From Oceanispirochaeta sp. (GTDB lineage: Bacteria > Spirochaetota > Spirochaetia > DSM-2461), in contig CAXXXD010000003.1 of the NCBI GenBank assembly GCA_963663385.2, positions 64,001 through 128,000 on the forward strand: DNA of 64,000 bases, given 5' to 3'. Shown one piece after another: positions 10,381-54,385 of this stretch. The notes beneath the pieces are model-generated. The model saw only the letters and a list, made by a program, of their open reading frames with translations. It was not told the DNA's origin and did no database searches. The position numbers and the translations under genes are program-made. Every line of letters begins with the position of its first letter. Within the stretch, counting starts at the first letter, position 1.

Positions 10381-10398
10381 TTTCCGAACTCTCTGTTT

Positions 10399-12078: not shown

Positions 12079-12088
12079 GGTAATAAGT

Positions 12089-29637: not shown

Positions 29638-32121
29638 ATGGAAATTTTGCAACTTGATATAAAGGGCATGACCTGTGCATCCTGCGTGGCGCATGTAGAA
29701 AAAGGTATAAAAAAGCTTGAAGGGATCGATATGGCATCGGTTAACCTTGCCACAGAAAAAGCTACGATCAGTTACGACCCCGATAATGTGGAGGCGGCTG
29801 CTATTATCCGGGCTGTTATGGATGCTGGGTACAGGGCTGCTGAAGCTGCAGACATTCCTGCTGATGAGGCCGAGGTTGAGAGGAAACAGGGTGAAAGGCG
29901 ATTGAAATACAAAATAACCCTTTCGGGCTTTTTGAGTGCGCCATTGCTGCTGGCAATGTTTGCTGCGATATTTCGTATAGATGCCCTTATGTTCCTGCAT
30001 AATCCCCTGCTTCAGCTTGCATTGGCTACCCCGGTACAGTTTTATGTGGGGCGTCAGTTTTACCTGACAGCATGGAAAACCCTTAAGGCAGGAAATCCGG
30101 GGATGGATCTGCTGGTTGTTATGGGAACTTCTTCAGCCTATTTTTTCAGTATTTTTAACGGTTTCTTTGCTTCATCCAGAGGAATTGAAAGTACGGGGCT
30201 TTATTTTGAAGCTTCCGCCATTATTATAACCCTGGTTCTTCTGGGAAAATTCCTGGAGGCCAGGGCAAAGGGAAAAACTTCACAGGCAATCCGCAAGCTG
30301 ATGGATCTGCAGCCGAAATATACGAGAGTCGAGAGGGACGGAGGTGCTATACAGGTTCCTGTAAGCGATGTACAGCCGGGGGATATTATCCTTGTCAGAC
30401 CGGGAGAGCGGATTCCCGTGGATGGTGAAATCCTGAGCGGTCATACCTCTGTGGATGAAAGCATGATCACCGGAGAGAGCATGCCCGTTGAAAAAAGGGA
30501 AGGAGATTCCGTTGTCAGCGGTACTATCAACTCCTATGGTTCAATCCGCTACAGAGCGGTCCATACCGGTAAGGATTCTGTTCTGGCCAGGATTATTGCC
30601 GTAGTGGAAGCGGCTCATGGGTCCAAGGCTCCCATTCAGAAACTGGCGGATAAGGTTGCTTCCGTTTTTGTTCCAACCGTACTGGGGATTGCCCTGGCGG
30701 TCTTCCTGATCTGGTGGCTCGCTGCGGGATCGTTTTCCAGCGCTGTTGTGGCAGCCGTTGCGGTTCTTGTCATCGCCTGTCCCTGTGCGCTGGGCCTGGC
30801 TACGCCTACGGCTATAATGGTTGGTACAGGTATGGGTGCGCAGCGGGGCATTCTTATTAAAAACGGAGAAGTACTGCAGCTGGCGGGTAAACTGGATGCT
30901 GTTGTTCTGGATAAGACCGGGACTATAACCCAGGGGCGTCCCGAGCTGCAGAAAATTATCCCCGTAGTAAGGGGAGGGACGGAGGTCGTACTATCCGAGG
31001 AAGAGCTGCTCATCACTGCCGCATCTCTGGAACAGAACTCCGAACATCCCCTGGCAATGGCAATTGTTGATACGGCAGAGGACAGAGGCCTGGATCTGAA
31101 GAATTGCAGTGATTTCTCAGCAGTTCCCGGTAAGGGTATCAGGGGTAACATTGAAGGGAACTCCTATCTGATGGGGACGGAGGTTCTGATAACATCAGCC
31201 GGTATAACCATTGAGCCCATACTGGATGAAAAGAGAAAGCTGGAGGAAGAAGGGTATACGGTTATGATTCTGGCTTCCAATGAATCTGGTGATTTCCGGA
31301 TCTCGGGGCTGTTCGCTGTGGCAGACCGCATCAAGGAGAGTTCTGCTGCCGGAGTGGCTGCCCTGAAGGAGATGGGCCTTAAGGTTTATATGATTACGGG
31401 GGATAACGCAAGAACCGCCCGTGCTATAGCCGGTAAAGCCGGAATAGAGAATATCCTCTCGGATGTTCTTCCTGAAGGAAAGGCAGAGGAAATCCGGAGG
31501 ATGCAGAAAAAGGGACTGACTGTGGCTATGGTTGGGGACGGGATTAACGATGCGCCTGCCCTGGCTCTGGCTGATGTGGGGGTAGCCATGGGGCAGGGGA
31601 CGGATATTGCCATGGAAACGGCGGATATCACCCTGATGAGAGGGGATCTGAGAGAGATTGCTGCAGCTATTCAGCTCTCCCGCAAAACCATGCAGAAAAT
31701 CCGGCAGAATCTGTTCTGGGCTTTTTTCTATAACAGTATCGGTATTCCCTTTGCCGCGTCGGGGCTGCTGAACCCGGTTATTGCCGGAGCTGCCATGGCT
31801 TTCAGTTCTGTTTCGGTTGTTTCAAACTCTCTCAGTTTAAAGAAATTCAGATTTATGGCGGATCATGGAACCGGCAGAGAAAACCGGGAATCAGAAAAAG
31901 ACAATAAGGTGGATAATATGGAAAGGATTATTACAGTGGAAGGTATGAGCTGCAATCACTGTAAAATGAGCGTGGAGAAGGCGGCGTCTGCTGTGGCAGG
32001 TGTGGAGAAGGCGGTTGTAAATCTTGAGAAAAAGGAACTTTATATAAAGATAGGGGATGGCAGCCGGGTTATTGAAGAAGTAAAAGCTGCCGTTACCGAA
32101 GCCGGATTCAGGGTTCTTTAG
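29638..32121 (+). CDS. copA: Cu(+)-exporting P1B-type ATPase with N- and C-terminal HMA domains
   Basis: [37 protein letters not shown]-terminal GMSCNHC. Confidence 0.95.
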
Positions 32122-32279
32122 TATTTTGTGTTCACCCCTTTTCCCTTTAAGGTGATTAAGTTTAATTATCCTGCACTCTGAAGATTGTGCAGGATTCATC
32201 ATGTTAAGTATGAGGAATGCAGTATTACGGGACAGTCAGGGCACTGAAACGGCATAAGACCGCAATTCTGAAATATTTC

Positions 32280-32325
32280 TTGACAACTTATTAAACAAGA
32301 TTTAATATCATGATAAATAAGTTGT
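32280..32325 (+). promoter_or_regulatory. Sigma70 promoter and overlapping operators of the sugar operon
   Basis: TTGACA-17-TAATAT; palindromes TATTAAA-N5-TTTAATA (32289-32307) and ACAACTTATT-N23-AATAAGTTGT (32283-32325). Confidence 0.65.
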
Positions 32326-32335
32326 GTGAGTATGT

Positions 32336-33235
32336 ATGAATATTGTTGGTATTGATATTGGCGGGACGAAGATAGCCTTCGGTTTAATTCAGGATGGCTG
32401 TTTAAAAAAACAGAGCAGGATTAATACAGATCCCGCCGGATCCTTTCAGGAAAAGATGCGCGAATTATCCCGGGGCATTATTGAGATTACAGAAGGCCTT
32501 ATCATAGACGGAATAGGGATCGGTTGTGCCGGCCCTCTGGATCCGTTGAAAGGAACTATAGAAAACCCCTATACACTGCCGGCGTGGCAGGGGGCGAATC
32601 CTGTAGCGTTCTTCAGGAAGAAATTCTCCGTTCCTGTTCTACTGGATAATGATGTCAATGCCGCATTGGCAGGGATTGCCCACTTTGAATATCCGGATTT
32701 GAAAAACGCGGTAATGCTGACATTCGGGACAGGAATAGGCGGCGCTGTTCTGATAGACGGGGAACTTTTCCGTATAGGTGCCAAACGTCATCCCGAGTTG
32801 GGTCACATCCCTGCCGGACAGGGGGAGATGAGCTGCTATTGCGGTATCAGCGGCTGTCTCGAAAGCCAGGTTTCGGGTAAACGCTTTTCCCGAATGGTTG
32901 AGGAAGAGGGGTATCGGGGGCTGGACGATTATTATGAGCTTCTGGAAAGGGGAGATAAAAAGGCTCTGAATCTGGCGGAACATGTTGCTGCCATTATCGA
33001 TCAGGGGCTGATGACATACAAGATAATATTTGAACCTGATGCCTTTGTTCTGGGTGGTGGATTTATGGACAGATTTTTCCCCTGGTACGTGAAGCTGCAT
33101 AATCCGTCTGTTACTTTTTCTGAATTCTACAGGAACAGGATAAATCTGATCAGGTCTGAAATAAATGGTGATATAGCTGTTCTGGGCGCAGCTGCCCTGA
33201 TGGAATCGCAATTACTTAAACAAAAAGGAAACTGA
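32336..33235 (+). CDS. ROK-family sugar kinase
   Basis: GIDIGGTK, DNDVNAA, GTGIGG, ELGH..CYCG..GCLE. Confidence 0.9.
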   Translation: MNIVGIDIGGTKIAFGLIQDGCLKKQSRINTDPAGSFQEKMRELSRGIIEITEGLIIDGIGIGCAGPLDPLKGTIENPYTLPAWQGANPVAFFRKKFSVPVLLDNDVNAALAGIAHFEYPDLKNAVMLTFGTGIGGAVLIDGELFRIGAKRHPELGHIPAGQGEMSCYCGISGCLESQVSGKRFSRMVEEEGYRGLDDYYELLERGDKKALNLAEHVAAIIDQGLMTYKIIFEPDAFVLGGGFMDRFFPWYVKLHNPSVTFSEFYRNRINLIRSEINGDIAVLGAAALMESQLLKQKGN

Positions 33236-33236
33236 A

Positions 33237-33998
33237 ATGAATAGAGAAATCCAGCTGGGAACAATTAAATTCTGCCTGGCAGATGATTATGATGAAATGA
33301 GCAGGAGTGCGGCACAGATTCTTATCGAACAGGTCAACCGCAGAGCGGATTCTCTGCTCACTATAGCGACCGGTTCGACTCCCGAAGGTCTGTACAGGCA
33401 TTTCTGCCGCAGAGTCCGGGAAGAGAAGCTGAATATTGAGACTCTCCGTTTTCATAAACTGGATGAGTGGGCCGCTCTGAAAAAAGGAGATCCCGCCAGC
33501 TGCGATAGTTTTATCCGGGAGTTCCTGATTGATCCCCTCCATATTCCTGAGGACAGGTACTGGGGGGTAAACAGCGAGGCTGAAGATCCTGAAGGAGAAT
33601 GTATGCGTATTGCAGAACGGCTGCAGCGTGAAGGACCTTCGGATCTTTGCATTTTAGGTCTAGGGGCAAACGGTCATCTGGGTTTGAATGAACCGGATAC
33701 TTTTCTGTCTCCCTATACGCATATGATTGATTTAAGTGAGCAATCCAAATCTCATACCATGCTGAGTAGTGCTGAGTCGAAGGTTTCCCGCGGAATGACC
33801 ACAGGGATGGCTGAAATCCTACAGGCCGGGCAGATCCTGTTTCTTGTCAGCGGTGAACATAAATCCGGGCAATTCAAAAGGTTCATGTCCGGAAAGGTCA
33901 GCACGGAATTCCCGGCATCATTCCTGTGGCTTCATCCCCATGTAACATGTGTCTGCGATAGGGCTGCCGCATCATTGGTGGAGTGGGAGACCTGTTGA
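33237..33998 (+). CDS. NagB/AgaI-like hexosamine-6-phosphate isomerase/deaminase
   Basis: ATGSTP, LDEW, ILGLGANGHLGLNEP, PASFLWLH. Confidence 0.85.
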   Translation: MNREIQLGTIKFCLADDYDEMSRSAAQILIEQVNRRADSLLTIATGSTPEGLYRHFCRRVREEKLNIETLRFHKLDEWAALKKGDPASCDSFIREFLIDPLHIPEDRYWGVNSEAEDPEGECMRIAERLQREGPSDLCILGLGANGHLGLNEPDTFLSPYTHMIDLSEQSKSHTMLSSAESKVSRGMTTGMAEILQAGQILFLVSGEHKSGQFKRFMSGKVSTEFPASFLWLHPHVTCVCDRAAASLVEWETC

Positions 33999-34489
33999 AT
34001 GCGTAAGGTTCAAAATCAGAAAGAGATGAAATTGAATAATCTCGTCAATATTCTTGATTACCTTAAAAAAAACGATATTGCGGTTAAATCGGTTCTGGCC
34101 AGGGAACTGGGGCTGAGTGTAGTAACCATTACCAGGATCTGTGATGATCTGGCAGAGGCCGGGATCCTTGAGTACACCGGGGAGAGAGAGTCGACGGGTG
34201 GACGTAAACCTGTAGGGGTTTGTCTGATTCCAGATTCCAGAGTGATAATCGCTCTGGATCTGAGTGAAAAGGATCAGGCATATCTCGGGGTTATGAACAT
34301 GGCTTATGAAGAAGTCGCTTCGGAGGTTGTCCGGATTTCGGACAGATGGAATCTGAATGATTTTCTGCAGGCCCTTAAAGGGAAATTGGAGGCATTGCAG
34401 GAACTGCAGATGACCGTAATCTTGTTATTATCGGCTGTTGCGAACAGTTCTATCAGTACTGGATTAAAGAGGATCAGATTATTCAGTAA
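33999..34489 (+). pseudogene. ROK-family repressor with internal deletion and frameshift
   Basis: HTH plus STGGRKP plus first ROK strands, then the frame degenerates near 34405; another frame reads ADDRNLVIIGCCEQF..IQ-stop(34489), resembling a ROK C-terminus. Confidence 0.65.
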
Positions 34490-34531
34490 TTATTTTATCA
34501 GATTGGTTTCTGATAAATTAAGGAGGATTAT

Positions 34532-35770
34532 ATGTTAAGAAAAATGTGTTTACCCGTAATGATGGTATTGCTGGTAAGTGGAACTCTATTTGCCGGCGGG
34601 CAGAAAGAAGCAGCCGATGGACAGGTTAAACTGACTGTTCTGGCGCCCTGGGCAGATCAGGAGCTGGAATCGTTTATGCCGGTTCTTACGGCATATGAAG
34701 AGGCTAATCCGGGAGTGACAATTGAGTACAGAACTGGTAAACCGGAAGATACGGCTACCATTCTGGCCGGACAGTTCGCCGTTAAACGGACTCCGGCTGA
34801 TCTGATTGATACATCTTTTTCCTGGTATATCCGGGAACAGGGTGAAAAGGGGCATCTGATGGATGTCTCAGGGCTTGTTTCCGATGCAGATTTTCTTCCC
34901 GGTGCACTGGATATGGTAAAAGTCAGCGGTGTTCCCTATGGGGCTCCCAGTGTGGGCGGTGTTACAATTACTGAGTACCGTAAGTCTTTCTTCAGGGAGA
35001 AGAATCTTCCCGATCCTGCTTCCCTCGGCAGCTGGGATGAGTACCTGGCATTACTGGATAAAATCCAGCTTATTCCGGGAGTAGACGGTGCCATAGGCAG
35101 CGGCGGTGGTGTAGGCTGGACATTCACCAGCATTATTGAAACCTATATTATTACTTTCGGCGGGGTGGAAATGCACAAGGCTCTGACCGAAGGGACGATG
35201 AAGTGGACCGATCCTTCAGTGCGGAATATTTTTGTGGAAAGACTTCTGCCCATGCTGCAGAAGGGATATTTCGGTGAACCCGATGAATTCGATGCTGTTC
35301 TGAAAGCCATGTGGAATGGCAAGCACGGGATGTATGTGGGGGACAGTACGGATAACCTTATGCTGTCACCTGCCGAAGACCGGGGTGTTTTCCTTCTTCC
35401 CGGACAGAAAGGCACAATACTATGGAACGATTTCTGGTTCGCCCCTAAATATTCTGAAAATCCTGAAGAAGCACAGAAGCTGTTCACGTTCCTGGCAACG
35501 GAAGGGCAGGTCATGCAGATCAAGGGCGGAGGGCGAATAGCTACTTATGCCAAAGTACCTGTGGATGCTTACCCTGCTTCTGAAAGGGAAGTTTTCTCCG
35601 TAATCCGGAATGCAGCCGTACGGCCCGATATGGATGATACGATTGGTGGGAAATTTCAGTCTGTTATCTGGGACCAGCTCGGGCTTATCTGGTCAAAACC
35701 GGATGTAACGACTCTTGATAGAGTTCTTGATGAGATACAGAAAGCCTCTGATGATACTTTAGATAAATAA
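34532..35770 (+). CDS. Sugar ABC transporter substrate-binding protein
   Basis: Signal peptide ending LFAGGQKE, 412 aa, upstream of two CUT1 permeases. Confidence 0.88.
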   Translation: MLRKMCLPVMMVLLVSGTLFAGGQKEAADGQVKLTVLAPWADQELESFMPVLTAYEEANPGVTIEYRTGKPEDTATILAGQFAVKRTPADLIDTSFSWYIREQGEKGHLMDVSGLVSDADFLPGALDMVKVSGVPYGAPSVGGVTITEYRKSFFREKNLPDPASLGSWDEYLALLDKIQLIPGVDGAIGSGGGVGWTFTSIIETYIITFGGVEMHKALTEGTMKWTDPSVRNIFVERLLPMLQKGYFGEPDEFDAVLKAMWNGKHGMYVGDSTDNLMLSPAEDRGVFLLPGQKGTILWNDFWFAPKYSENPEEAQKLFTFLATEGQVMQIKGGGRIATYAKVPVDAYPASEREVFSVIRNAAVRPDMDDTIGGKFQSVIWDQLGLIWSKPDVTTLDRVLDEIQKASDDTLDK

Positions 35771-35821
35771 AAGTATAGCCGGGCTGATAAAACAGCCCGG
35801 GATTCTATACAGGTGGTAATT

Positions 35822-36700
35822 ATGAAAAAAAGAATTTCAAGGGATACGGTTATTCTGATAGCGCCCTCATTGATCCTGGTTGCGGTATTCCTTGTATATC
35901 CCATGTTCAGCAGTATCGGTATGAGTTTTTTTTCCGATTCCAATGAGTTTGCAGGACTTAAAAATTATATTGATGTATTTCAGGACAGCCGGATAATCAA
36001 TTTGAGAGGTTTTATTGATGGGCCTCCCTTCGGGGCTCTGATTCATAATCTGATCTGGATTGTGATACATCTTCCCATGACCATTTTTCTCGGGCTGATT
36101 TTTGCCCTTTTATTCCGGAACATTCCCGGCGGCGGAATTATCCAGTCTATTATCTTTATGGGTATGGTCGTACCTATGGTTATAGGCGGTGTAATTGTTC
36201 GCTTCATGTTTTCAAAAAACGCCGGAATGATCAGTCATTTCATGGGATTTCTGGGGATCGATTTATTGAACACTACCTGGATTGCTCACCCGGGGACTGC
36301 CCTGATTGCTCTGATTCTGATAAGTGTCTGGTTATGGACAGGATACTGTATGATTGTGTACCTGGCAGCCCTTACAACTATACCTGTTTCCTATTATGAA
36401 GCGGCCCGGATAGACGGCGCAAACAAATGGCAGCAGTTTAAAAACATTACATTTCCCATGCTTATGTCGGCAACGGGTGTCATTATCGTTATGACTATCC
36501 TGTGGGAACTGAAACTGTTTGATCTGGTATATGCCTCCACCGGCGGCGGCCCGGGAGGAGCAACAAATGTAATGGCTCTGGAAATGTACTTGACATCATT
36601 CAAGTTTCTCGAATATGGAAAAGGAACAGCTATTGCTACTATTTTAACTCTCATAACAGCTGTTCCCATAGCATTTTCTGTCAGAAAGGGACTGGATTGA
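35822..36700 (+). CDS. Carbohydrate ABC transporter permease
   Basis: YEAARIDGANKWQQFKNITFPML EAA loop; FDLVY..TGGGPG. Confidence 0.92.
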   Translation: MKKRISRDTVILIAPSLILVAVFLVYPMFSSIGMSFFSDSNEFAGLKNYIDVFQDSRIINLRGFIDGPPFGALIHNLIWIVIHLPMTIFLGLIFALLFRNIPGGGIIQSIIFMGMVVPMVIGGVIVRFMFSKNAGMISHFMGFLGIDLLNTTWIAHPGTALIALILISVWLWTGYCMIVYLAALTTIPVSYYEAARIDGANKWQQFKNITFPMLMSATGVIIVMTILWELKLFDLVYASTGGGPGGATNVMALEMYLTSFKFLEYGKGTAIATILTLITAVPIAFSVRKGLD

Positions 36701-37551
36701 TGAGAGGTTTCAGATTAAAAAAGAATAAAGCCCTGAAAGGATTCAACACCCTATTCTGCTGGTTTCTCGGATTTGTCTGGGTTCTGCCATTTCTGGGACT
36801 GGTTATGGCATCTGTCAGACCGGGAGAGGAGCTGATTAATGGATGGTGGGTCCTGGATCAATTTTCCTTTTCACTGAAGAACTATTTTGATGTGCTGTTT
36901 ACGGCCTCTATTCCTTTAGCCAGGCCGATGCTGAATTCGCTGATTATATCCTTACTGGGAAGTATAATTCCGATTTTTTTCGGATTTTCTGCAGGCTATG
37001 CTTTTGCGCGGAACTATATTCCGGGGAAAAAGACTATTATGGTCATTCTGCTGAGTATCATGGCAATCCCTCTTCAGATGATATCAGTTCCCATATTCAA
37101 AATGATGAATGCCATGTATGTGCTGGACACCATCTGGAGCGTAACCATTCTGAATACAGCTACCTCCATACCATGGATTATATTTTTTATTATGAATTTT
37201 ATTATGGCCCAGCCTCTGGAAGTTGAGGAAGCTGCCAAAATAGACGGCTGCAATACCTATCAGATACTGCGCAGTATTGTACTTCCTCAAACCTGGCCGG
37301 CATTTATATCTGTATTTGTGCTTCAGTTTGTCTGGTGCTGGGTAGATTTCTTTCTGCCTCTGCTGTTTCTCTATTCGCCTGACAAGTATACGGCAGTACA
37401 GGTCATTCCCATGCTGAGAGGCCAATTCGTGACAGACTGGGGACGCCTGTCAGCAGCTTCCGTGCTGGTTACGTCAGTTCCCCTGGGAGTTTTTCTTATG
37501 CTTCAAAAATACTATATAGCCAGCTCTGTGGGCTGGGTACCGGATAAATAA
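36697..37551 (+). CDS. Carbohydrate ABC transporter permease
   Basis: EEAAKIDGCN..IVLP EAA loop; AGYAFAR. Confidence 0.92.
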   Translation: MMRGFRLKKNKALKGFNTLFCWFLGFVWVLPFLGLVMASVRPGEELINGWWVLDQFSFSLKNYFDVLFTASIPLARPMLNSLIISLLGSIIPIFFGFSAGYAFARNYIPGKKTIMVILLSIMAIPLQMISVPIFKMMNAMYVLDTIWSVTILNTATSIPWIIFFIMNFIMAQPLEVEEAAKIDGCNTYQILRSIVLPQTWPAFISVFVLQFVWCWVDFFLPLLFLYSPDKYTAVQVIPMLRGQFVTDWGRLSAASVLVTSVPLGVFLMLQKYYIASSVGWVPDK

Positions 37552-37563
37552 GGAGATAATAGA

Positions 37564-38979
37564 ATGCATAATATGATGCGTGTCTTTACAGATACAACAA
37601 TAACGGAAGAGTATTACAATGCGGTGATAGAAGGTGCTGCACGGTTACTGTCAGAGGATGGAATCGGCTGCACCTCTTCCAGGGCCAAGGTTTTTCTATC
37701 GGAGAATCTGAATGGTGTGCGTTATACGGAAGATAAGGTTTATTTTTCCAGGGAACTGATCTATACGTTTCTGGAAGAGCTAAAGCAGAACTTCAGGAAA
37801 TGTAATCCCCTGGAGAAACCTCTGGATCACGGGGAATCCTGGTCCTGTCTGAATTATTATGACGGGGAAACCGATCAGATCCGTCCCGCCAAAGAGGAGG
37901 ATCTGATAAGGATTCTCAGATTCCTTGATGCCTATGGCGTCAAGGGGAAGGTTCCGCCTGTGGCTTTGAGTGAATTCCCTGCTTCACTCCGGGATTTGCA
38001 CAGCACAAGAATCTGTCTGGAGAACTCTCCGGTATACGGGGCTCCCACCCATACTCCGGAAGCTGAAGAAGCGCAGATCTATGCCGATATGGCCCAGGTG
38101 GTCAATCGCAGGATGTGGGTGTTGGCTATGCTGGTTATCAATCCTATGAAATTTGACGACAAGGTTCTCGATTTTGTCATTGATCAAAGGTTCAATCCTC
38201 ATTTTGATATTGAAATGGTCAGCGGGCTTCCTTCGCCGGGCAGTACAAGTCCGCTGGTTTTCCCGGCGGTGCATATACAGGGCATGGCGGAGGATCTGGC
38301 CTCATCCCTGTTTATGAAAGCTTCCATGAATATCTATGAACCCGCCTACCTGCGGGGGGATCCTTTCGATATGCGATATGCCAACTATGCCATTGCCGGT
38401 CCCGAGTATATCATGCTTGATATGGCGAACAGAAAGCTCTATGAATGGATGAGCGGTTCACCCCGCTGGTGGGGGTATCTGCTGACTATGAGTAAGAAGC
38501 CGGATGTTCAGGCCGCTCATGAGAGAACAATCAGCTGCTGGCTTCAGGCTCTTAACGGCGCTACATACTTTAAGGGAAGCGGTCAGATGGCATCCGATGA
38601 GGTATACAGTATGGAGCAGGTTGTCATCGACCGTGCCATTGTCAGGAATGTGGACCGTCTCCGGACCGGATTGACCCCTAAAATGGACGTGGATGAGAGT
38701 CTGGAACTTATACGGGAGGGACTGTCCGAAGGCAATTACCTGGCCCATGACAGCACATTGTCTGAATTCCGGGATTTCTTTACGGATAACCCCCTTTTCC
38801 CGGCTTCGAATCTCGGTCAGTGGCGGGAGAAGGGAGAGCCCTCGATATTGGATAAAGCCGGTGAGGAGATCCGCAGGCAGTGTGAGAAAACCCCTTTTGC
38901 CAGGAGCAAAGAGGACATCAGGGAACTCCGGGACATCTGCCGACGCGGTGAATCGGTTATACTTAAAAACTCAAGATAG
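37564..38979 (+). CDS. MttB-superfamily (trimethylamine methyltransferase-like) protein without pyrrolysine
   Basis: GSTSPL, GPE, SKKPDVQAAHE, GQM..D..YSMEQVVID, GNYL.HDSTL and W...G C-terminal motifs; no in-frame TAG. Confidence 0.75.
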   Translation: MHNMMRVFTDTTITEEYYNAVIEGAARLLSEDGIGCTSSRAKVFLSENLNGVRYTEDKVYFSRELIYTFLEELKQNFRKCNPLEKPLDHGESWSCLNYYDGETDQIRPAKEEDLIRILRFLDAYGVKGKVPPVALSEFPASLRDLHSTRICLENSPVYGAPTHTPEAEEAQIYADMAQVVNRRMWVLAMLVINPMKFDDKVLDFVIDQRFNPHFDIEMVSGLPSPGSTSPLVFPAVHIQGMAEDLASSLFMKASMNIYEPAYLRGDPFDMRYANYAIAGPEYIMLDMANRKLYEWMSGSPRWWGYLLTMSKKPDVQAAHERTISCWLQALNGATYFKGSGQMASDEVYSMEQVVIDRAIVRNVDRLRTGLTPKMDVDESLELIREGLSEGNYLAHDSTLSEFRDFFTDNPLFPASNLGQWREKGEPSILDKAGEEIRRQCEKTPFARSKEDIRELRDICRRGESVILKNSR

Positions 38980-38991
38980 AGGAAATGCATA

Positions 38992-40362
38992 ATGGATAAA
39001 CTGAAAATTATTATCATCGGAGCGGGGAGCCGCGAATTCAGCAGGGGACTGATCCATGATCTTTTTCTGGAAGAGGATCTGTTTAAGGGTAGAGAAGTTA
39101 CCCTGGGACTATGTGATATTGATGAGGATGCTCTCAAAGTAATGACGGGTTATGCCGAAAGGGTTAACGCATTGTTCCGGAATCCCCTCAAAATAGAATC
39201 CTCAATCGACAGGACAAAAGTTTTGGAAGGGGCGGATTATGTTCTTGTTGCCGTTGAACAGAGCAGGATGGATCTGTGGGAACAGGATTTCAGGGTTCCC
39301 CAGGCATTCGGTTTCAAACAGGTCTATGGGGAAAACGGGGGACCGGGGGCCCTGTTTCATACCCTGAGGAACTATAACATCTATTTTCCCATCCTTGAGG
39401 ACATAGAGAAGATCTGTCCGGATGCATTGATCATCAATTTCACCAATCCCGAAGCCCGTATCCTTACGGCGATACTGAGGCACACTAAACTGAAAGCCAT
39501 CGGTCTGTGCCACGGTTTTTACGATTTTTATAACTTCATAGCAAAGGTTTTCGACCGCCCCTATGAAGAGTTTGATATCCGTACGGCCGGTATGAACCAT
39601 CTCTTTACTTTTTATAGAATTGAAGAGAAGGGCAGCGGCCGGGATATGATTCCCCTGCTGAAGCAAAAGCTGAAGGAGCAGCCCGAGCTGCTGCCCCCTC
39701 TGTCTCGTTATGTCTGGGAAAACTTCGGAGTGATCGGTATTGATTCGGATCATCATATAGGTGAGTATTTTTCCTATGCCCATGATTTTACGGGATTGCA
39801 GTGGGAGTTCGGTATTGAGAAACGCAGGATACTGCAGGATAAAAGATTTGTTGATTCCAACGTTGCCTTTCAGGCCTGGCGTTACAATGTGGATGTGGCG
39901 GAATATCTTGACGGTTCCTATGGCAGAAAGATTAACGATCAGCTGGAAGGCCGGGCAGAGCTGTCTCCGGGTGATATTGTTTCTTCCGGTGAACTGGCTG
40001 TGCCTGTTATTGCCGATATCGTTCTGGACAGAAAACGCTGGCGGGCAGCGGTTAATGTACTGAATACGGACGGGTATATTGTGAATCTGGATTCTGATGC
40101 CTGTATTGAAGTGCCGGCTGTAGTGGATAAGGAGGGAGTCCACCCGGAAAGAATCGGATCTCTGGATGAAGGACTGGCCGCTCAGATCAGACTTCAGAAC
40201 TCCATACAGAAAATCATATCCGATGCCTGGATGACAAAATCGAGAAAGCTGCTGCTCCAGGCCCTGCTGCTTGATCCTGTTGTGGACTCAGCTGTTAATG
40301 CAGAGAAAATGCTGGACTATATGCTGGATCTTCAGAAGGATTACATCCCCGAATTCAACTGA
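38992..40362 (+). CDS. Family 4 glycoside hydrolase (NAD+/Mn2+-dependent, alpha-galactosidase/glucosidase-like)
   Basis: IIGAGS, GENGGPG, INFTNP, GLCHG, AGMNH, ALLLDP. Confidence 0.92.
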   Translation: MDKLKIIIIGAGSREFSRGLIHDLFLEEDLFKGREVTLGLCDIDEDALKVMTGYAERVNALFRNPLKIESSIDRTKVLEGADYVLVAVEQSRMDLWEQDFRVPQAFGFKQVYGENGGPGALFHTLRNYNIYFPILEDIEKICPDALIINFTNPEARILTAILRHTKLKAIGLCHGFYDFYNFIAKVFDRPYEEFDIRTAGMNHLFTFYRIEEKGSGRDMIPLLKQKLKEQPELLPPLSRYVWENFGVIGIDSDHHIGEYFSYAHDFTGLQWEFGIEKRRILQDKRFVDSNVAFQAWRYNVDVAEYLDGSYGRKINDQLEGRAELSPGDIVSSGELAVPVIADIVLDRKRWRAAVNVLNTDGYIVNLDSDACIEVPAVVDKEGVHPERIGSLDEGLAAQIRLQNSIQKIISDAWMTKSRKLLLQALLLDPVVDSAVNAEKMLDYMLDLQKDYIPEFN

Positions 40363-40368
40363 TTGAAA

Positions 40369-41721
40369 TCAGGATCGCCCCTTGTTCACGGCGTTTATGG
40401 AAAGATCGAAAACAACCTGATCCGGCACCAGGTTTCGGACGGTCAGATCACCGCCGTGCTTGCGGGCGATCATTCTGGTTATGGAGAGTCCCAGTCCGCT
40501 GCCGCCTCTATCCTGGGTTTTTCTCCAGTAACGGGTAAAAAGATGAGGTAGATCCTCTTTCGCAATCTGTCCCTTGTTTCTGACTTCGATGATATCGCAT
40601 CCGGTTTTCTCATGGCTGAATATGCTAATATCGATAACGAGGCCTGTTCCGTAAAGGATGGCATTCTGGATAAGGTTGCTTATCCCTCTCATCAGAAGGA
40701 TCGGATCCCCCCATATTTCCTTTCTTTCAATATCCGTATAGATCACTATTCCCTTCTCTTCGGCCAGAGGAATAAAACGGTCTAAAAGAGGGGTTATCAG
40801 ATCTCTTTCTGTCTGCAGGAACTGGCAGTTATGGCTGCCCAGGGTATCCTCCAGCTTATATAAAACTGACATATCGTCTATAAGCTGGTTCAGGTAGCCT
40901 AACTCTCTGTAAAAGTGATCAAAACGCTCTTCAGACAGTTTCATGGCTCCCAGTTCCACTGCTTCCAGTTGATTATACAGGCCCGCTATGGGACCTTTCA
41001 GGTCGTGGGTCAGTTCCTGAAGTCTGTGGTTTGCCCGTTCATCCTTTAAAATCAGCTGTCTTTGCAGATTTTCGGCAGCCTTTACTATCTGCTGTGATTC
41101 CCTGATTCTGGCGTCGGGAAACTGTATATCCCTCTTCCCGTCTGCCAGTTGAGAAATCGTATCGGATATTTTTCCGATGTTGACTGTCAGCTTTCTGGAT
41201 CCCAGATAGGCTGCTCCGATTATCAGGGGGAACGTGATGATCAGAACAAGAAGGATAAGATACATGGATTGTTTAATTATCTGAAAAAGGGATGGTTTTT
41301 CGATAAGTTTTTCAGGGGAGGAGAAAACCTCTATATAAGCAGGATCAATACCTTCAATCCCAAGGGAGTGCAATTCCCGGCCCTGACGGGACAACCGTTT
41401 TTCATCCATGCCGGGAGGGATCTCTCCCTTCTCCTGGAGAATATTGTAATCCCAGTCGTAAATCCGGATAAAGGAAACCACGGACAGTATATTGTCCAGA
41501 AAAAAAGTATACTGTTTTTCGGGGATACTCTCAAATGTCCACTCTTCACCGTATCCTCTTAAAGCTATTTGAATTTTGGCTATATCCGATTCTTCCTCTT
41601 TCTCGAGAATGCTGTGCATCAGAAACCGGATAGATATTGTACTGACTCCGGCAAACAGAATAAGATTGAACGTTAATAACAGCATAAAAAACGTGAACAG
41701 TCTGGTAAAGGCATTATGCAT
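40369..41721 (-). CDS. Membrane sensor histidine kinase (HAMP-HisKA-HATPase)
   Basis: Two TM helices, THDLKGP, NLIQNAILY, GSGLGL. Confidence 0.9.
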   Translation of the reverse strand: MHNAFTRLFTFFMLLLTFNLILFAGVSTISIRFLMHSILEKEEESDIAKIQIALRGYGEEWTFESIPEKQYTFFLDNILSVVSFIRIYDWDYNILQEKGEIPPGMDEKRLSRQGRELHSLGIEGIDPAYIEVFSSPEKLIEKPSLFQIIKQSMYLILLVLIITFPLIIGAAYLGSRKLTVNIGKISDTISQLADGKRDIQFPDARIRESQQIVKAAENLQRQLILKDERANHRLQELTHDLKGPIAGLYNQLEAVELGAMKLSEERFDHFYRELGYLNQLIDDMSVLYKLEDTLGSHNCQFLQTERDLITPLLDRFIPLAEEKGIVIYTDIERKEIWGDPILLMRGISNLIQNAILYGTGLVIDISIFSHEKTGCDIIEVRNKGQIAKEDLPHLFTRYWRKTQDRGGSGLGLSITRMIARKHGGDLTVRNLVPDQVVFDLSINAVNKGRS

Positions 41722-43877: not shown

Positions 43878-45410
43878 TCAGATCCTCTTCACAGTCCTCT
43901 CCTTCAGTCTTTCCGCCAGTTCGGATTCGGTCTGTTCCAGGAATTCAATAACCGTTTTTTCCACGGTTCGGCCGGTATGGTTCAGAATCTCCGCGGCAAT
44001 ACGGGTTCCGTCCCTGTCTTTTTCCAGGTCCGTTCCCATCTGCTCCAGTTTTAATAGCAGATTCTTTTTAATCAGCATAAGGGTTTTCGGTGCGATCCTA
44101 TCGGTCTGGCTGATTCGCTGCATTAATTCCACCTGTTTCTCCGCAGGGAACATTTCAAAAAGTCTTACGGCGGGAACAGTGTCGAGTCTTGACAGGATCA
44201 GGGCTGATAATTGTAATAAATCATCCTGAAGGATGAGATAGAGATTGGGGATCTGATCTATACCTATAGCATCCAGCCCTGTAAGTTCCTGCGAGACAGG
44301 TTTATTCCCGGGCTGTCCCAGAAGAAGCTGATTATTCAGATAATCCTGGCCGTCCTTCAGCAGATCGATTTTTTGCATGAAAAGGTCATTTGTCCTATCC
44401 AGTTTCGCTGCCAGCCTTGTCAGCTCTTCTGTCAGTTTATCAGGCCGGTCCATTTTCTTTTTCAGTACTGTATCCCGGTTGACTAACCGCTTGAACTGTT
44501 CCGGGATACTCAGTAGAAGGCACCCTTTTGCTTTTTTAAACTTTCCATTCAGAAGGGGCGTTCCTCCCATCCTTATATAGGCATCTCCCGTTTTAAAGGA
44601 TTTAAGGGGCAGAAGGCTTCCTTTTTTCAGCCGGCCCAGAGTTTTCAGATTTACAGGACCGGCTTCATGAACCAGCACTGTGTCCAGATTGAGAGAAAGT
44701 GTCTTTTCTGCCATTTCCGCTGTGCCAGTCTTCTCCAAATTATTATACCAGCGCCGGGAAAGTTTATGCATTATGGGTTCCAGAGTCAGGTAGGGCAGGC
44801 AGAATGTAAGATGTCCTCTGCATTCTCCCATTTCGATATCCAGGGTTACGGTAACAACCATCTCCGAAGGGGGGACAATCTGCATAAAAAGGGGATTCTG
44901 CTCCATTCCTCCCATCTCGGGAGTCATGTCGAAGATACTTTTCCATGACTCCTTCAGGCTCATTATAAGCCGGCAGAACAGCTCCCGAACCAATTCGTAA
45001 CCTATGGCGCTAAGTTCCCTGTTGAAATTCTGTTCGGTACCTTTTCCTCCCAGAAGACGGTCGCAGAAGGCCGTGGTAATCTCCGGACTGAGCTCCATCA
45101 TGGTTGAACAGATAAGAGGTTTATAATTAACAAGGCCCATAATGGTCGGGCTTTCCAGAGAGGAGATAAAATCACCGAAGTTTACCTGGTCTACAGAATT
45201 TAAATGAACTTTTACCTGTTCCCGCATCCGGGCGGACAGCACAACTTCGCCAAGGCGGCTAAAGGTTTCATAAACAACGGCTATTGTCCGAATCTGTTCT
45301 TTCGAGAGTTTATCCGGCCGGCGGAAATCGTAATACGCCAGCCTGCATTCCCTGTCTTTCCGGTTTGTCCGCGGAAGCAGTTCTGAGGTCCTGATTACAG
45401 ACTGTTTCAT
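43878..45410 (-). CDS. FliM-like protein fused to a C-terminal FliG middle-domain region
   Basis: YDFRRPDKLSKEQIRTI, LLGGKG, EQNPLFMQIVPPSEMV, PYLTLEPI (FliM); ALILSRL..AAEILN..VEKTVIEFLE..ELAE (FliG); ATG overlaps the fliN stop. Confidence 0.8.
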   Translation of the reverse strand: MKQSVIRTSELLPRTNRKDRECRLAYYDFRRPDKLSKEQIRTIAVVYETFSRLGEVVLSARMREQVKVHLNSVDQVNFGDFISSLESPTIMGLVNYKPLICSTMMELSPEITTAFCDRLLGGKGTEQNFNRELSAIGYELVRELFCRLIMSLKESWKSIFDMTPEMGGMEQNPLFMQIVPPSEMVVTVTLDIEMGECRGHLTFCLPYLTLEPIMHKLSRRWYNNLEKTGTAEMAEKTLSLNLDTVLVHEAGPVNLKTLGRLKKGSLLPLKSFKTGDAYIRMGGTPLLNGKFKKAKGCLLLSIPEQFKRLVNRDTVLKKKMDRPDKLTEELTRLAAKLDRTNDLFMQKIDLLKDGQDYLNNQLLLGQPGNKPVSQELTGLDAIGIDQIPNLYLILQDDLLQLSALILSRLDTVPAVRLFEMFPAEKQVELMQRISQTDRIAPKTLMLIKKNLLLKLEQMGTDLEKDRDGTRIAAEILNHTGRTVEKTVIEFLEQTESELAERLKERTVKRI

Positions 45411-45652
45411 CACTGCCCCCTTTCATTGTAAATTTCAGTAATTCGCAAGCCGTAGTGTTCGTCAATAATGACGACCTCTCCCCGGGCAACTTTTTCGCCT
45501 GCTGCAATCAGATCTACCGGTTCTCCCGCTATCCTGCTTAGTTCTATAATGCTGCCTTCTCCCATGGAGGACAGATCTTCCAGACTGAGATTGTTGTCAC
45601 CCAATACAACCTGTACGGGAATTTTAACTTCACTGACCTTTCCCAATTTCAT
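45410..45652 (-). CDS. fliN: FliN/SpoA-domain flagellar switch protein
   Basis: VQVVLG..GSIIEL..AGEPVD..ARGEVVIIDEHYGLRITEI. Confidence 0.85.
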   Translation of the reverse strand: MKLGKVSEVKIPVQVVLGDNNLSLEDLSSMGEGSIIELSRIAGEPVDLIAAGEKVARGEVVIIDEHYGLRITEIYNERGQ

Positions 45653-51373: not shown

Positions 51374-51403
51374 TTTGACCTCCCTCACTCCTTAATCGTC
51401 CTC

Positions 51404-51570
51404 GGCCTCCCCATTATCCCCTCAATGGGAGGGGAACCGAATTGACGTCTCCCCTTTGGGGAGATTGAGAGGGGCTCGGATGGTTAACCCTCACCCCTTA
51501 ATCCCCCTGGTCGTAAACTACGTTTACTGCTCTGGCATGCATCCGGCCTCTCCCAGAGGGAGAGGGGGTT
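51404..51570. repeat. Cluster of REP-like palindromes within the prkA operon
   Basis: TCTCCCC-TTT-GGGGAGA (51448-51464) plus TTGAGAGGGGCTCGGA, CCCCTTAATCC and CTCTCCC-AGA-GGGAGAG (51548-51564). Confidence 0.65.
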
Positions 51571-51572
51571 TT

Positions 51573-53174
51573 TTACAATTGTTTGCGGCTTATCTTCCGG
51601 TCTTTCATGGTGTAACAGACCCTCTGTTTCATCAGTATCGTTTCCTCCCCTTTCTTTTCGTAGTACATTTCTGTCGTTTCCAGTTTTACAGGGTTTCCCC
51701 ACAGGTATTCCAGTCCCATCATGGTGTTGGGGATATACTCCTTCATAAGCGGTTTCCCCTCGTCCCGGTGACACAGGTAGAGGGTATTCTCATCGGTCTT
51801 CTCCTTATCAACCCGGATATCCGGAGGGTGCCAGAGGCTGTCCAAAAGCATGGCCCTGTATGCATCGGCCCCCTTGCTTTTTATGACATACTCCCAGGTC
51901 TGCCGGGGCGCATTCAGCCGTTTTTCAACCGTATAGAGTTTGTTGCGGTTGATAAAATCCTGATCGACAAAGCGGTTTATCAGTGTAAAATCGCAATACT
52001 CCTCCCGCAGCTTAAACAGAAAATCCGTTCCCTTGCCGGTATTCCGGTTGTACCGCTTCCGGTCTTCTATCTCGTGCAGTTTTTCAAACTCATAACTGAT
52101 CCGTCCTTTTTCGGCCAGGTCCTCAATATACTCCATCAGACGCATCCCGATGGCATAGGGGTTCAGCCCTATCCGGGGGAGGGATGTCACCATGGCATGA
52201 ACCCTGGCAAAGTCCACTTCATGTCCGCATATTCTTTTATCTTTGAGAAAGAGCCGCTCGTGCCAGTAACTGGCCCAGCCTTCATTGAAGATATGGTCCC
52301 GTCTCTGGGGATCGAAATAGAGGGCCGTGTCCCGCACTACATGGATAACCGATTTCATCCATCGGTTTTCCTCTTTCTGCAGAAAAGGGGAGGCATTGAG
52401 GATATATTCCAGAACATCCCGGGAGACGGTTTCTTTCTTCTGTTTGTATCTTTCGAAGAATGAATCGAATTCGGGATAGAGGGATTTGGCTTCCGTGAAG
52501 AAGAGGGATTCTCCTGTTTCAGGAGACGCCTTCTGCAGTTCGTTATAGCGTTTCAGGTTTTTCAGGTACTCCCCGTGAGAGACCTTCCTGATATCCTGAA
52601 GAAAGCTGTCAAAGTAGAAATCCATCTGCGGACTGTAGCGGCCTGTGTTTTGTGTGTGGAGGGCTGACAGTACTCTATAGAACCCGAGGATATTGTCTGC
52701 TCCCCGGGCAAATTCGATAATATAATCCACCCAGCGGCCGTATTCCGACCGCAGCCGGGCAATAAGCCGCTTATCCGCCCGGGCCCGTCCCAGAAAATCA
52801 TCTCCCCAGGTATGTTTAAAGAAGGTGTTGTTCTGGAAAAAGTCGATATGCCCCAGAACATGGTAGAAGATCATCACATTGAGCCAGTCCGGGTTGTTGT
52901 CGTTATAGAACGAAACGGCCGGGCGTGTATTGATAACCGTCTCGTAGGGATTGGTGGGGTAGAGCTTGTACTTTCCCTTCTCCTGGAGCACCCTGACATC
53001 ATGAACCCAGTAGTCGTAGATGGTGGGGATCATCATTTTGGGGGAGAGTTCCAGCATATCCTGATTGGTAACGACGTACTCCAGGGTTTCATTGTCAAAA
53101 CGAAGGCCTTCGTCCCGGGCGCGTTGTTTGCACTCTTCCATTATGGCTTTTACATGCTGATCTACCAGGGTCAT
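51573..53174 (-). CDS. SpoVR/YcgB-family protein
   Basis: YETVINT.P, HVLGHIDFFQNN, FNEGWASYWH, NPYAIG, YLWG.PV.LET. Confidence 0.92.
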   Translation of the reverse strand: MTLVDQHVKAIMEECKQRARDEGLRFDNETLEYVVTNQDMLELSPKMMIPTIYDYWVHDVRVLQEKGKYKLYPTNPYETVINTRPAVSFYNDNNPDWLNVMIFYHVLGHIDFFQNNTFFKHTWGDDFLGRARADKRLIARLRSEYGRWVDYIIEFARGADNILGFYRVLSALHTQNTGRYSPQMDFYFDSFLQDIRKVSHGEYLKNLKRYNELQKASPETGESLFFTEAKSLYPEFDSFFERYKQKKETVSRDVLEYILNASPFLQKEENRWMKSVIHVVRDTALYFDPQRRDHIFNEGWASYWHERLFLKDKRICGHEVDFARVHAMVTSLPRIGLNPYAIGMRLMEYIEDLAEKGRISYEFEKLHEIEDRKRYNRNTGKGTDFLFKLREEYCDFTLINRFVDQDFINRNKLYTVEKRLNAPRQTWEYVIKSKGADAYRAMLLDSLWHPPDIRVDKEKTDENTLYLCHRDEGKPLMKEYIPNTMMGLEYLWGNPVKLETTEMYYEKKGEETILMKQRVCYTMKDRKISRKQL

Positions 53175-54370: not shown

Positions 54371-54385
54371 ATAAAACCTTCTATT

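Follow-up and report, generated by a model that had tools for sequence, protein, structure and literature searches.

A divergent MttB-type protein encoded in sugar import and breakdown operons of several anaerobes may demethylate sugars without oxygen, which would be an undescribed reaction. Methylation of sugars stands in the way of the usual catabolic enzymes. In the literature that we searched, which mostly excluded subscription journals, no report was found of an MttB homolog in a sugar pathway or of corrinoid-dependent sugar demethylation, and the only route found for the removal of sugar methyl groups was an O2-dependent P450. How the anaerobes of sediments, mats and guts handle methylated sugars is not explained by this O2-dependent route.

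If our reading holds, the MttB superfamily, known only for methylamines and quaternary amines, would gain methylated (amino)sugars as a substrate class, and carbohydrate degradation would be tied to cobamide-dependent one-carbon metabolism. The system would also be a concrete one to test, made up of the operon with its binding protein and of a single corrinoid protein and a single activase, and it would caution against concluding from every metagenomic MttB homolog that methylamines or betaines are turned over.

Organization of the operon

Eight co-directional ORFs on the forward (+) strand fill positions 32336-40362, from the start codon of a ROK kinase gene to the stop codon of a GH4 gene. 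They are tightly packed, with inter-ORF spacings of 1, 0, -7 (overlap), 42, -4 (overlap), 12 and 12 nt. With exact coordinates and Pfam and NCBIfam assignments, this bears out the packed operon of ROK kinase, NagB-like enzyme, CUT1 transporter, MttB-like protein and GH4 hydrolase described in an earlier note on this DNA. A promoter-like site, TTGACA-17-TAATAT (32280..32308, + strand; 10/12 match), ends 28 nt upstream of the first gene and is the top-scoring match within 32000-40700. Since the nine promoter-like sites of this interval are not above the number in shuffles (mean 13.2), the promoter call is an argument from placement only.

The first gene (32336..33235) encodes a 299-aa ROK-family sugar kinase (PF00480, 146 bits) without an HTH or other DNA-binding domain; its best NCBIfam models (allose kinase, glucokinase and ManNAc kinase) all scored far under their cut-offs. 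It is followed by the gene of a NagB/AgaI-type hexosamine-6-phosphate deaminase/isomerase (33237..33998; PF01182, Glucosamine_iso), which reached 261.3 bits with the NCBIfam galactosamine-6-P isomerase model, against a cut-off of 271; among solved proteins, B. subtilis NagB (2bkv, E 5.8e-45) is the closest to it. Although this deaminase is present, the operon has no NagA-type deacetylase.

The third gene (33999..34538) encodes a truncated, NagC-like winged-HTH regulator of the ROK type with 179 aa (HTH_24, 21 bits). The protein, called a ROK repressor in the earlier note, is only the N-terminal third of such a repressor and lacks a ROK domain according to Pfam. It matches positions 37-140 of the 399 positions of the NagC model, and its residues 1-132 align, at 27-36% identity, with the N-termini of full-length ROK repressors in loci L010-L013; the homologous repressors of related loci have 388-400 aa. 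There is no room for a ROK domain because the regulator ORF overlaps the start of the next gene.

That gene encodes a CUT1 solute-binding protein (34532..35770; PF01547, SBP_bac_1), and it precedes those of a MalF/UgpA-type permease (35813..36700) and a MalG/UgpE-type permease (36697..37551), both assigned as BPD_transp_1 by Pfam and NCBIfam. The closest solved relatives of the binding protein are the chitin-oligosaccharide-binding proteins NagB2 (E 5e-12) and NagB1 (E 1e-7), which are weak matches. Together, the three proteins make up a CUT1 importer without an ATPase in the window, i.e., the whole 64,000-nt stretch of DNA that was analyzed. CUT1 importers often share an ATPase encoded elsewhere. 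That the window encodes neither an ABC ATPase nor a corrinoid protein, as had been noticed before, was confirmed by the absence of PF00005 (ABC ATPase), PF02310 and PF02607 (corrinoid) from all 48 of its non-overlapping ORFs of at least 100 aa.

The last two genes encode a divergent non-pyrrolysine MttB-superfamily protein of 471 aa (P0001; 37564..38979; PF06253, MTTB), referred to here as the MttB-like protein, and a 456-aa GH4 NAD/Mn-type glycosidase (38992..40362). The latter contains both GH4 Pfam domains, PF02056 at the N-terminus (125.6 bits) and PF11975 at the C-terminus (107.1 bits). The N-terminal dinucleotide-binding GxGS motif, a defining feature of GH4, is found as IIIGAGS at residues 7-13. 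With the NCBIfam alpha-galactosidase subfamily model, the protein scored 262 bits against a cut-off of 486.

Conservation of the clade and of its gene neighborhood

The MttB proteins of sugar loci fall on a single branch (40 rows, SH-aLRT 100, stem length 0.55), whose members come from Spirochaetota, KSB3 and Clostridia. About 30 metagenome proteins are counted in the clade. The clade is too rare for a presence/absence statistic; the following counts show rarity only. Among 401 sampled genomes of the phylum, a member was present in one, namely the genome of this organism (G000; 768 bits, with the next best match at 213 bits), and among 151 genomes of the family of G002 it was present in G002 alone.

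Considering the window and 22 distinct related loci, a GH4 gene was found in 13/23, CUT1 transporter parts in 11/23 and some carbohydrate gene in 19/23, so the proposed linkage of the MttB gene to GH4 and ABC genes proved to be conserved. The same order of genes is found again in unrelated lineages, so that chance alone does not account for the arrangement. In eight other distinct loci (L010, L011, L012, L014, L085, L086, L087 and L089), the MttB gene is followed immediately by that of a GH4 ortholog with 51-63% identity. Orthologs of the CUT1 binding protein show 58-60% identity in L010, L011, L013 and L085-L087 and 50% in L012, and those of the ROK kinase, with 33-34% identity, hold the equivalent position in L010-L012, L086 and L087.

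The amino-sugar genes, i.e., those of the ROK kinase and the NagB/AgaI enzyme, accompany only the closer half of the clade. In the distant half, a Zn-dependent alcohol dehydrogenase and a second, canonical-looking MttB paralog are found instead, and other members neighbor a GH38 (L090) or a GH95 (L100) glycosidase. Such differing neighbors (GH4, GH38 and GH95) fit a modification common to many sugars. The earlier proposal of an undescribed pathway for an N-methylated amino-sugar glycoside is supported in that a demethylation step may belong to a glycoside pathway; its N-methyl amino-sugar specificity is not established, owing to this uneven distribution of the amino-sugar genes.

Family, fold and conserved residues of the MttB-like protein

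Membership in the MTTB family, which had been assigned from the sequence alone, was upheld by both profile and fold comparisons. The protein matched PF06253 with 74.1 bits (E 7.7e-21; cut-off 25) over profile positions 34-475 of 500, and with 72.5 bits in the genome-wide search, while canonical members in the compared loci reached 294-321 bits. It scored 101.6 bits with the equivalog TIGR02369, under the cut-off of 525, and its protein atlas matches were generic MTTB clusters only. The reading frame is uninterrupted, without an in-frame UAG, and Leu307 aligns with the pyrrolysine of MttB (Pyl334), which sets the protein apart from pyrrolysine-type MttB. A Foldseek search with its AF2 model (pLDDT 85.5) gave MttB, MtgB or 4yyc chains as all of the top ten matches (E 6e-22 to 1e-18, TM 0.70-0.74), with MttB 7xcl (E 6e-22) and MtgB 9yce/2qne (E about 1e-20, TM 0.71) as the best. 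As judged from this predicted model, the protein shares the TIM-barrel fold of MttB and MtgB.

Seventeen superfamily columns (D100, R107, D113, E243, D269, D314, E320, G332, F336, G340, E346, S349, E351, D356, T398, F412 and W420) are each kept in at least 27/28 close-clade rows and at least 11/12 distant-clade rows, and the same residues dominate in 15 other MttB homologs that were compared; at the E320 column, 11/12 distant-clade rows have Asp. Three of these invariants are lost in a tandem paralog present in related loci (E346Q, E351A and D356N). Invariants specific to the clade are W93, T148, C151, G221, S227, P234, A235, R290, Q328, G338 and Q341.

Altogether, 52 columns are invariant across 21 sequences of 37-83% identity, and they appear to concentrate at barrel-strand ends, according to the secondary structure of the model. 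Together with the intact reading frame and a gene order conserved across phyla, this clustering makes it highly improbable that the operon carries the protein only as a relic without catalytic activity or as a sensor, even if the truncated regulator gene speaks of some decay at the locus.

MtgB was compared through an alignment to 9yce, whose chain numbering is offset by 2 from that of the paper (PMC13080624). That paper gives Y97, R312, H348 and F356 as the glycine-betaine-binding residues of MtgB. In the MttB-like protein, R312, H348 and F356 are replaced by W302, K337 and D345, and the Y97 loop is absent, unlike in MtgB-type proteins. Thus, of the four MtgB residues that bind trimethylammonium and carboxylate, three can be aligned and none of these is kept (0/3). 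The columns of R312 and H348 (the latter corresponding to MttB Y364) are variable within the clade, and that of F356, or MttB G372, holds Asp (D345). The loop that bears MtgB Y97 and the Gly110-Thr111 corrin contact of MttB is 4-5 residues shorter. The pair Asp345-Glu346 was considered as a clade-specific ammonium-binding site and rejected, since in a far broader radiation the pair is common among the best 150 representatives.

The protein could also be a conventional quaternary-amine demethylase acting on the aglycone of the glycoside, a choline- or betaine-like alcohol freed by the GH4 enzyme, and not on the sugar. The alcohol dehydrogenase and canonical-looking MttB that replace the amino-sugar genes in the distant half of the clade would suit such a role. 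The loss of all alignable trimethylammonium- and carboxylate-binding residues and the tie of the close half to a hexosamine kinase and deaminase make it quite improbable, and we know of no natural quaternary-amine glycoside of sufficient abundance.

Corrinoid machinery

Based on tblastn searches with five corrinoid-protein, two RACo and three URO-D queries, no corrinoid, RACo or MT2 gene was found in any of the 22 related loci; the single match in clade loci was a URO-D gene of L015, situated where the contig ends. As a positive control, the canonical archaeal MttB of L016 adjoins its own corrinoid protein gene. An MT1-type setting with partners encoded alongside is therefore absent from the window and the 22 loci; the genome has the genes of a corrinoid protein and an activase at another site.

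The genome search that the earlier note had called for identified one corrinoid protein and one RACo activase in G000, but no stand-alone MtgA-type pterin-binding (methylcorrinoid:tetrahydrofolate) methyltransferase; Pterin_bind matches were limited to a FolP-like ORF and an 858-aa MetH-like ORF. The stand-alone corrinoid protein has 269 aa (G000:C3:249143-249952), probably starts in reality at Met55, and contains B12-binding_2 and B12-binding domains with DxHxxG, SALLTTT and GGAPV motifs. Its gene is adjoined by that of the RACo activase, and both are located about 146 kb from the operon, co-directional with the genes of a PocR/AraC regulator and of an aldose 1-epimerase, the latter also next to the corrinoid protein gene. 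A second, weak B12-binding candidate is a 301-aa ORF at G000:C2:254.4-254.9 kb (37.8 and 27.9 bits). The predicted complex of the MttB-like protein with residues 55-269 of the corrinoid protein scored 0.17, against a mark of 0.32, and carries no weight either way.

A stand-alone or small corrinoid protein and a RACo activase were present in all six clade genomes examined (this one and five others; three of the six are close relatives), and RACo was present in 1/14 control genomes. In three Sphaerochaeta MAGs, the MttB-clade gene is the sole MTTB match, and the corrinoid module comprises a corrinoid protein, RACo, PocR/AraC, URO-D, CobW and a Met_synt_B12-like gene; in one MAG, it adjoins a sugar ABC operon. 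This co-occurrence is not specific to the MttB clade, because many URO-D homologs could be the real clients: URO-D matches number 29 in G000, 31 in G003, 18 in G005, 8 in G002 and 1 in G001, and many of the URO-D paralogs of G000 sit in sugar loci. G000 also has a non-pyrrolysine MtmB homolog.

These results bear on the possibility that the MttB barrel was adapted to act on the imported sugar in a reaction that needs no cobalamin, such as isomerization, epimerization, elimination or hydrolysis of an N- or O-substituent, with the corrinoid module of the genome serving the URO-D and MtmB homologs only. The absence of corrinoid genes from the related loci, the low family score, the shortening of the loop through which MtgB and MttB touch substrate and corrin, and the eleven clade-specific invariants are all consistent with it, and TIM barrels are often recruited to sugar chemistry. 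It is nevertheless unlikely. The superfamily-wide invariants are all retained, which weakens this alternative as far as the sequences indicate, although the neighboring paralog shows that their loss is possible. The dimerization-loop motif with W420 is kept as well, and 6/6 genomes encode a corrinoid protein and its activase. According to PMC9842639, the dimerization loop of MttB holds the corrinoid protein.

Proposed function and pathway

The MttB-like protein would most likely be MT1, the methyltransferase that recognizes the substrate, in a corrinoid methyl-transfer system of three parts, the other two having their genes at other sites in the genome, and we give an even chance to its being a corrinoid-dependent demethylase of a methylated (amino)sugar. 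We infer the catalytic steps, their order, the substrate and the partnership with the 269-aa corrinoid protein as follows. The CUT1 transporter, energized by an ATPase encoded elsewhere, would import a methylated glycoside, the glycosidic bond of which would be split by the GH4 enzyme. The MttB-like barrel would then move the methyl group from the sugar, or from the released product, to Co(I) of the corrinoid protein, kept reduced by the adjacent RACo activase. Finally, the ROK kinase would phosphorylate the demethylated hexosamine, and the NagB/AgaI enzyme would deaminate it for entry into glycolysis.

In this organism, a methylated hexosamine alpha-glycoside is the most likely substrate. Whether its methyl group is on nitrogen or oxygen is not readable from the sequence; N-methyl is slightly favored over O-methyl because the operon has a deaminase without a NagA-type deacetylase and because, to our knowledge, every characterized MttB-superfamily member demethylates nitrogen.

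Several points count against this corrinoid demethylase. Characterized MttB-family systems are usually clustered with their partner genes, which is not the case here, and a stand-alone methylcorrinoid:tetrahydrofolate methyltransferase was not found. At the sequence level, the shortened Y97/Gly110-Thr111 loop, the variable R312 and H348 columns and the Asp at the F356/G372 column also argue against it. Moreover, the non-pyrrolysine MttB members known to us require a quaternary nitrogen as leaving group, so that the MttB fold would have to perform a new kind of chemistry if the methyl group came from a secondary N-methyl amine or from an aliphatic methyl ether.

More tentatively, and with somewhat more doubt than belief, the single corrinoid protein and RACo activase could serve about 30 substrate-specific methyltransferases of three folds, each encoded in or beside its own sugar-uptake locus, in an O2-free sugar-demethylation network. 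In G000, its members would be one MttB-type, one non-pyrrolysine MtmB-type and up to 29 URO-D-type genes. The G000 assembly has four contigs and is 98% complete, which suggests that a culture of the organism may be at hand.

Comparison with known systems

MtgB of Desulfitobacterium hafniense (PDB 2QNE and 9YCE) is encoded with its corrinoid protein and MtgA, while the neighbors of the MttB-like gene are sugar genes. The two proteins share the Pfam family, the TIM barrel, the lack of pyrrolysine and superfamily invariants such as E243, D269, D314, E351 and D356; they differ in having only about 18% identity, in the three replaced glycine-betaine-binding residues and in the longer Y97 loop of MtgB.

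The best match among solved proteins in both sequence, with 104 bits from the clade profile, and structure is MttB of Methanosarcina barkeri (PDB 7XCL; complex with MttC, 7XCN). A W-x-C motif before the active-site loop and a C-terminal loop with a conserved Trp are common to both, whereas the MttB-like protein has Leu in place of the pyrrolysine, a deletion of Gly110-Thr111 and Asp at the position of Gly372. In PMC9842639, Gly110-Thr111 and Gly372 of MttB are described as hydrogen-bonded to the corrin.

MtcB, MtyB, MtpB and MthB of Eubacterium limosum, compared here by description, are likewise non-pyrrolysine members of the superfamily, and they are reported to feed a shared corrinoid pathway (PMC13080624, PMC8604678 and PMC12155760). 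Their substrates are free quaternary amines, and they are not known from any sugar context.

The URO-D-fold methyltransferases (MtaA/MtbA, aromatic O-demethylases and Mlp of type 1 mlp clusters) use a corrinoid protein and a RACo/Ram activase of the same kind. They belong to another fold and family; they are not related to the MttB-like protein but might be its partners or act in parallel with it. The Sphaerochaeta module of corrinoid protein, RACo, URO-D and CobW resembles clusters described by Kountz and Balskus (PMC10418091).

The P450 6-O-methyl-D-galactose demethylase of marine bacteria would be the functional analog, since it removes a sugar methyl group that blocks catabolism; in PMC6292453, it is described as aerobic and encoded among polysaccharide utilization genes. 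This enzyme has an unrelated fold, depends on O2 and acts oxidatively, with release of formaldehyde, whereas in our proposal the methyl group would be passed on intact and under anoxic conditions.

Organization of the operon

The MttB-like protein (471 aa, 37564..38979, +) is encoded in an operon of eight ORFs (32336-40362, +) with spacings of 1, 0, -7, 42, -4, 12 and 12 nt. It is flanked upstream by a P-type ATPase gene and downstream by a histidine kinase and response regulator pair in convergent orientation. Based on Pfam and NCBIfam models, the operon, all on the plus strand, encodes a ROK kinase of 299 aa that lacks a DNA-binding domain, an SBP_bac_1 binding protein with chitin-oligosaccharide binding proteins as its closest solved relatives (weak matches), two MalFG/UgpAE-type permeases, and the MTTB-family protein itself (PF06253, 74.1 bits; cut-off 25). 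The NagB/AgaI-type deaminase scored 261.3 bits against the cut-off of 271 of the NCBIfam galactosamine-6-P isomerase model, and its closest solved protein is B. subtilis NagB (E 5.8e-45), while the GH4 glycosidase scored 262 bits against the cut-off of 486 of an NCBIfam alpha-galactosidase subfamily model. The earlier note had described such an operon with neither a corrinoid protein nor an ABC ATPase in the window, and this is confirmed, because ABC ATPase and B12-binding domains are absent from all 48 non-overlapping window ORFs (0/48, Pfam). The top-scoring promoter-like site, 5′-TTGACA-n17-TAATAT-3′ (+), ends 28 nt upstream of the first gene, in a region with no overall enrichment of such sites.

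The remaining ORF (33999-34538, +, 179 aa) had been called a ROK repressor. Its alignment with residues 1-132 of the 388-400-aa ROK repressors at the same position in related loci supports a ROK-type regulator, but in truncated form: a winged HTH and the first strand of the ROK domain are followed by an unrelated tail, and the ORF stops within the start of the binding-protein gene. Given this cut-down regulator, sugar-responsive repression of the operon may have been lost.

Elsewhere in the window, a citrate lyase cluster (53-6572, +; CitC ligase, CitE, CitF, CitG and CitX) is followed by a TctCBA tricarboxylate transporter and a two-component system (6573-13591). An IS110-family transposase gene (1213-2427) separates the ligase gene from the rest of the cluster, and a transposase ORF with identical Pfam scores occurs on another contig of the source genome (C2; L112:17773-18987). 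In a 511-aa ORF (43878-45413, -), a FliM domain (residues 28-218) occurs together with a FliG middle domain (392-461), a pairing that is unusual for a flagellar switch protein. A PrkA, DUF444 (YeaH-like) and SpoVR cluster (49145-56443, -) includes a second PrkA-C-terminal paralogue of 747 aa (49145-51388, -).

Genomic context of the related loci

We compared the window with 22 distinct related loci (23 in total), 6 from species genomes and 16 from metagenomes; L088, from the same contig as L012, was counted once, and L086 and L087 are near-duplicates. Neighbours were identified by tblastn with the window proteins and by Pfam on 41 of 74 and 59 of 95 called ORFs in two locus sets. Of the 23 loci, 19 contain at least one carbohydrate gene, the exceptions being L093, L096, L098 and L099. 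A GH4 gene was found in 13/23 loci; in 9 of 12 close-clade loci it immediately follows the MttB gene, and among the other three, L090 stops ~300 nt past the MttB gene. CUT1 transporter parts occur in 11/23 loci, and the ROK kinase and NagB/AgaI pair occurs in six (the window, L010, L011, L012, L086 and L087), with a NagB-like gene also in the KSB3 locus L085. Elsewhere the neighbours include GH38 (L090), GH95 with GHL6 (L100), and a PfkB kinase alongside a GntR/LacI-type regulator (L084). Absences are weak evidence, because many contigs are short.

Upstream of the Sphaerochaeta operon, L010 (1912-3201) and L011 (1895-3214) carry a DUF1537-type four-carbon acid-sugar kinase gene (SBD_N and NBD_C), and a class II aldolase-family gene lies directly downstream in L011 and L012 (12747-13169); taken together, these genes may resemble those of tetronate catabolism.

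In seven distant-group loci, a canonical-scoring MttB gene (308-321 bits, Pfam) precedes the clade member in tandem (L015:4812-7670, L092:1723-4577, L093:206-3060, L094:3548-6402, L095:1614-4468, L096:239-3099 and L098:1-1820). In L093, L096 and L098, this second MttB paralogue and a Zn alcohol dehydrogenase are the only neighbours. The upstream partner forms a separate branch in the tree and lacks three acidic residues that are otherwise invariant in the superfamily (E346Q, E351A and D356N). The tandem pair could form a heteromer.

Phylogeny and distribution of the clade

The clade is rare. A search of 5.8 billion proteins gave 35 matches, with 32 besides the query at 39-83% identity, after which the next two drop to 27% and 23%. 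Searching 1.84 billion cluster representatives with a profile yielded 3213 matches at E <=0.001, with only 4 above 500 bits; among the 123 full-length representatives aligned from the best 150 listed, only the two closest have the full clade-specific residue set. The clade was present in 1/401 sampled genomes of the source phylum (the source genome itself) and in 1/151 genomes of the family of one Sphaerochaeta MAG (G002). In a tree of 61 MttB homologues (quick search, LG+G4, rooted on one archaeal row, several long branches flagged), the 28 close relatives form one branch (SH-aLRT 99) with a distant group of 11 rows as sister; both groups and one further row make up a branch supported at 100, on a stem of 0.55 changes per column.

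Candidate corrinoid partners and other methyltransferases

Using five corrinoid-protein, two RACo and three URO-D queries, tblastn detected no corrinoid protein or RACo in the 22 related loci (253 kb); the corrinoid queries matched nothing but the positive control, the L016 locus of a canonical archaeal MttB and its adjoining corrinoid protein, and the sole URO-D match was at the contig end of L015. The source genome has one RACo gene, outside the window, and one strong stand-alone corrinoid protein (B12-binding_2, 65.7 bits; B12-binding, 96.1 bits) with DxHxxG, SALLTTT and GGAPV motifs, which shares 59-65% identity with its counterparts in four other genomes and 42% with the one in G004. The two genes belong to a one-strand module (C3:249143-253320) that runs RACo, PocR/AraC regulator, corrinoid protein, aldose 1-epimerase and is separated from the operon by ~146 kb. 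A second B12-binding candidate (C2:254.4-254.9 kb) is weak. No stand-alone pterin-binding methyltransferase was found in this genome, the sole matches being a FolP-like ORF and an 858-aa MetH-like ORF.

RACo and a small corrinoid protein occur in all five other clade-holding genomes, and RACo in only 1 of 14 control genomes. In three Sphaerochaeta MAGs, RACo adjoins the corrinoid protein, in a module with PocR/AraC, URO-D, CobW and a Met_synt_B12-like gene; in one MAG this module shares a contig with the MttB operon and neighbours a sugar ABC operon. A URO-D and CobW pair 50% identical to that of Sphaerochaeta lies at a separate place in the source genome.

This co-occurrence with the clade does not settle the matter. 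The clade-holding genomes show a strong expansion of URO-D homologues (29 matches in the source genome, 31 in G003, 18 in G005, 8 in G002 and 1 in G001). In nine source-genome regions (L103-L111, e.g., C2:515000-529000, C2:1017000-1036900, C4:689000-706000 and C3:297000-311000) covering 14 of the 29 matches, most of the URO-D genes adjoin AraC/LacI regulators, CUT1/CUT2 sugar ABC transporters, FGGY kinases or rhamnose genes. The latter include RhaA and a class II aldolase, and several URO-D genes are in tandem pairs. The same genome, in which a search found no MtaB, encodes a 489-aa MtmB-family homologue (C2:1006160-1007629, i.e., L112:8161-9630, -; 318.9 bits) with no in-frame stop, hence a non-pyrrolysine form. 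It sits between enolase and an unannotated 509-aa ORF, beside a locus with a LacI regulator, a binding protein, two permeases and an N-sulfoglucosamine-sulfohydrolase-like sulfatase. The URO-D and MtmB homologues could be clients of the corrinoid module, and the data equally suggest a wider pattern of corrinoid-type methyltransferases built into sugar loci with one carrier protein in common.

Proposed function and comparison with MtgB and MttB

We consider the chances about even that the MttB-like protein is a corrinoid-dependent demethylase of the imported glycoside or of its monosaccharide product. In Oceanispirochaeta sp., the substrate is probably a methylated hexosamine, whose route into glycolysis would be completed by GH4, the ROK kinase and the NagB/AgaI enzyme. 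No published description of such a system was found in the literature searched.

The protein is a genuine superfamily member by HMM and by fold. An AlphaFold model built on 21 relatives (pLDDT 85.5) had MttB (7xcl, E 6e-22), MtgB (9yce, 2qne) and 4yyc as its ten best Foldseek matches, with TM ~0.7. It is the sole MTTB match in the source genome (5.3 Mb, 98% complete) and scored 101.6 bits with the true-MttB equivalog model (cut-off 525). Nothing interrupts its reading frame, and Leu307 takes the position of Pyl334, so it is not a pyrrolysine enzyme. As an alternative function, a conventional quaternary-amine demethylase with an aglycone as its substrate seems improbable to us.

Seventeen columns conserved across other MttB homologues are retained throughout the clade, and 11 more are invariant inside the clade only. 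That the protein is an inert relic is a reading to which we attach very little weight. A cobalamin-independent sugar enzyme, with which the lack of a corrinoid gene in the related loci is compatible, is unlikely but deserves more consideration than this or the aglycone reading; a kept scaffold with a remodelled pocket would suit a methyltransferase for a new substrate more than a barrel recruited to another chemistry. The remaining probability is reserved for functions beyond those named.

Aligning the clade profile onto 9yce and 7xcl, with residue roles taken from PMC13080624 and PMC9842639, shows several differences from these enzymes. MtgB R312 corresponds to the variable position 302 (Asp/Trp/Glu in the close group, Arg/Gln/His in the distant group), and MtgB H348, the MttB Tyr364 column, to position 337 (Lys/His and Ser/Asp/Gly, respectively). 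MtgB F356, the MttB Gly372 column, is replaced by Asp345; the pair Asp345-Glu346 was ruled out as clade-specific by the alignment of wider representatives. The loop with MtgB Y97 and MttB Gly110-Thr111 is 4-5 residues shorter in the clade. Relative to MtgB and MttB, this pattern suggests to us that the catalytic scaffold has been conserved and the substrate pocket remodelled.
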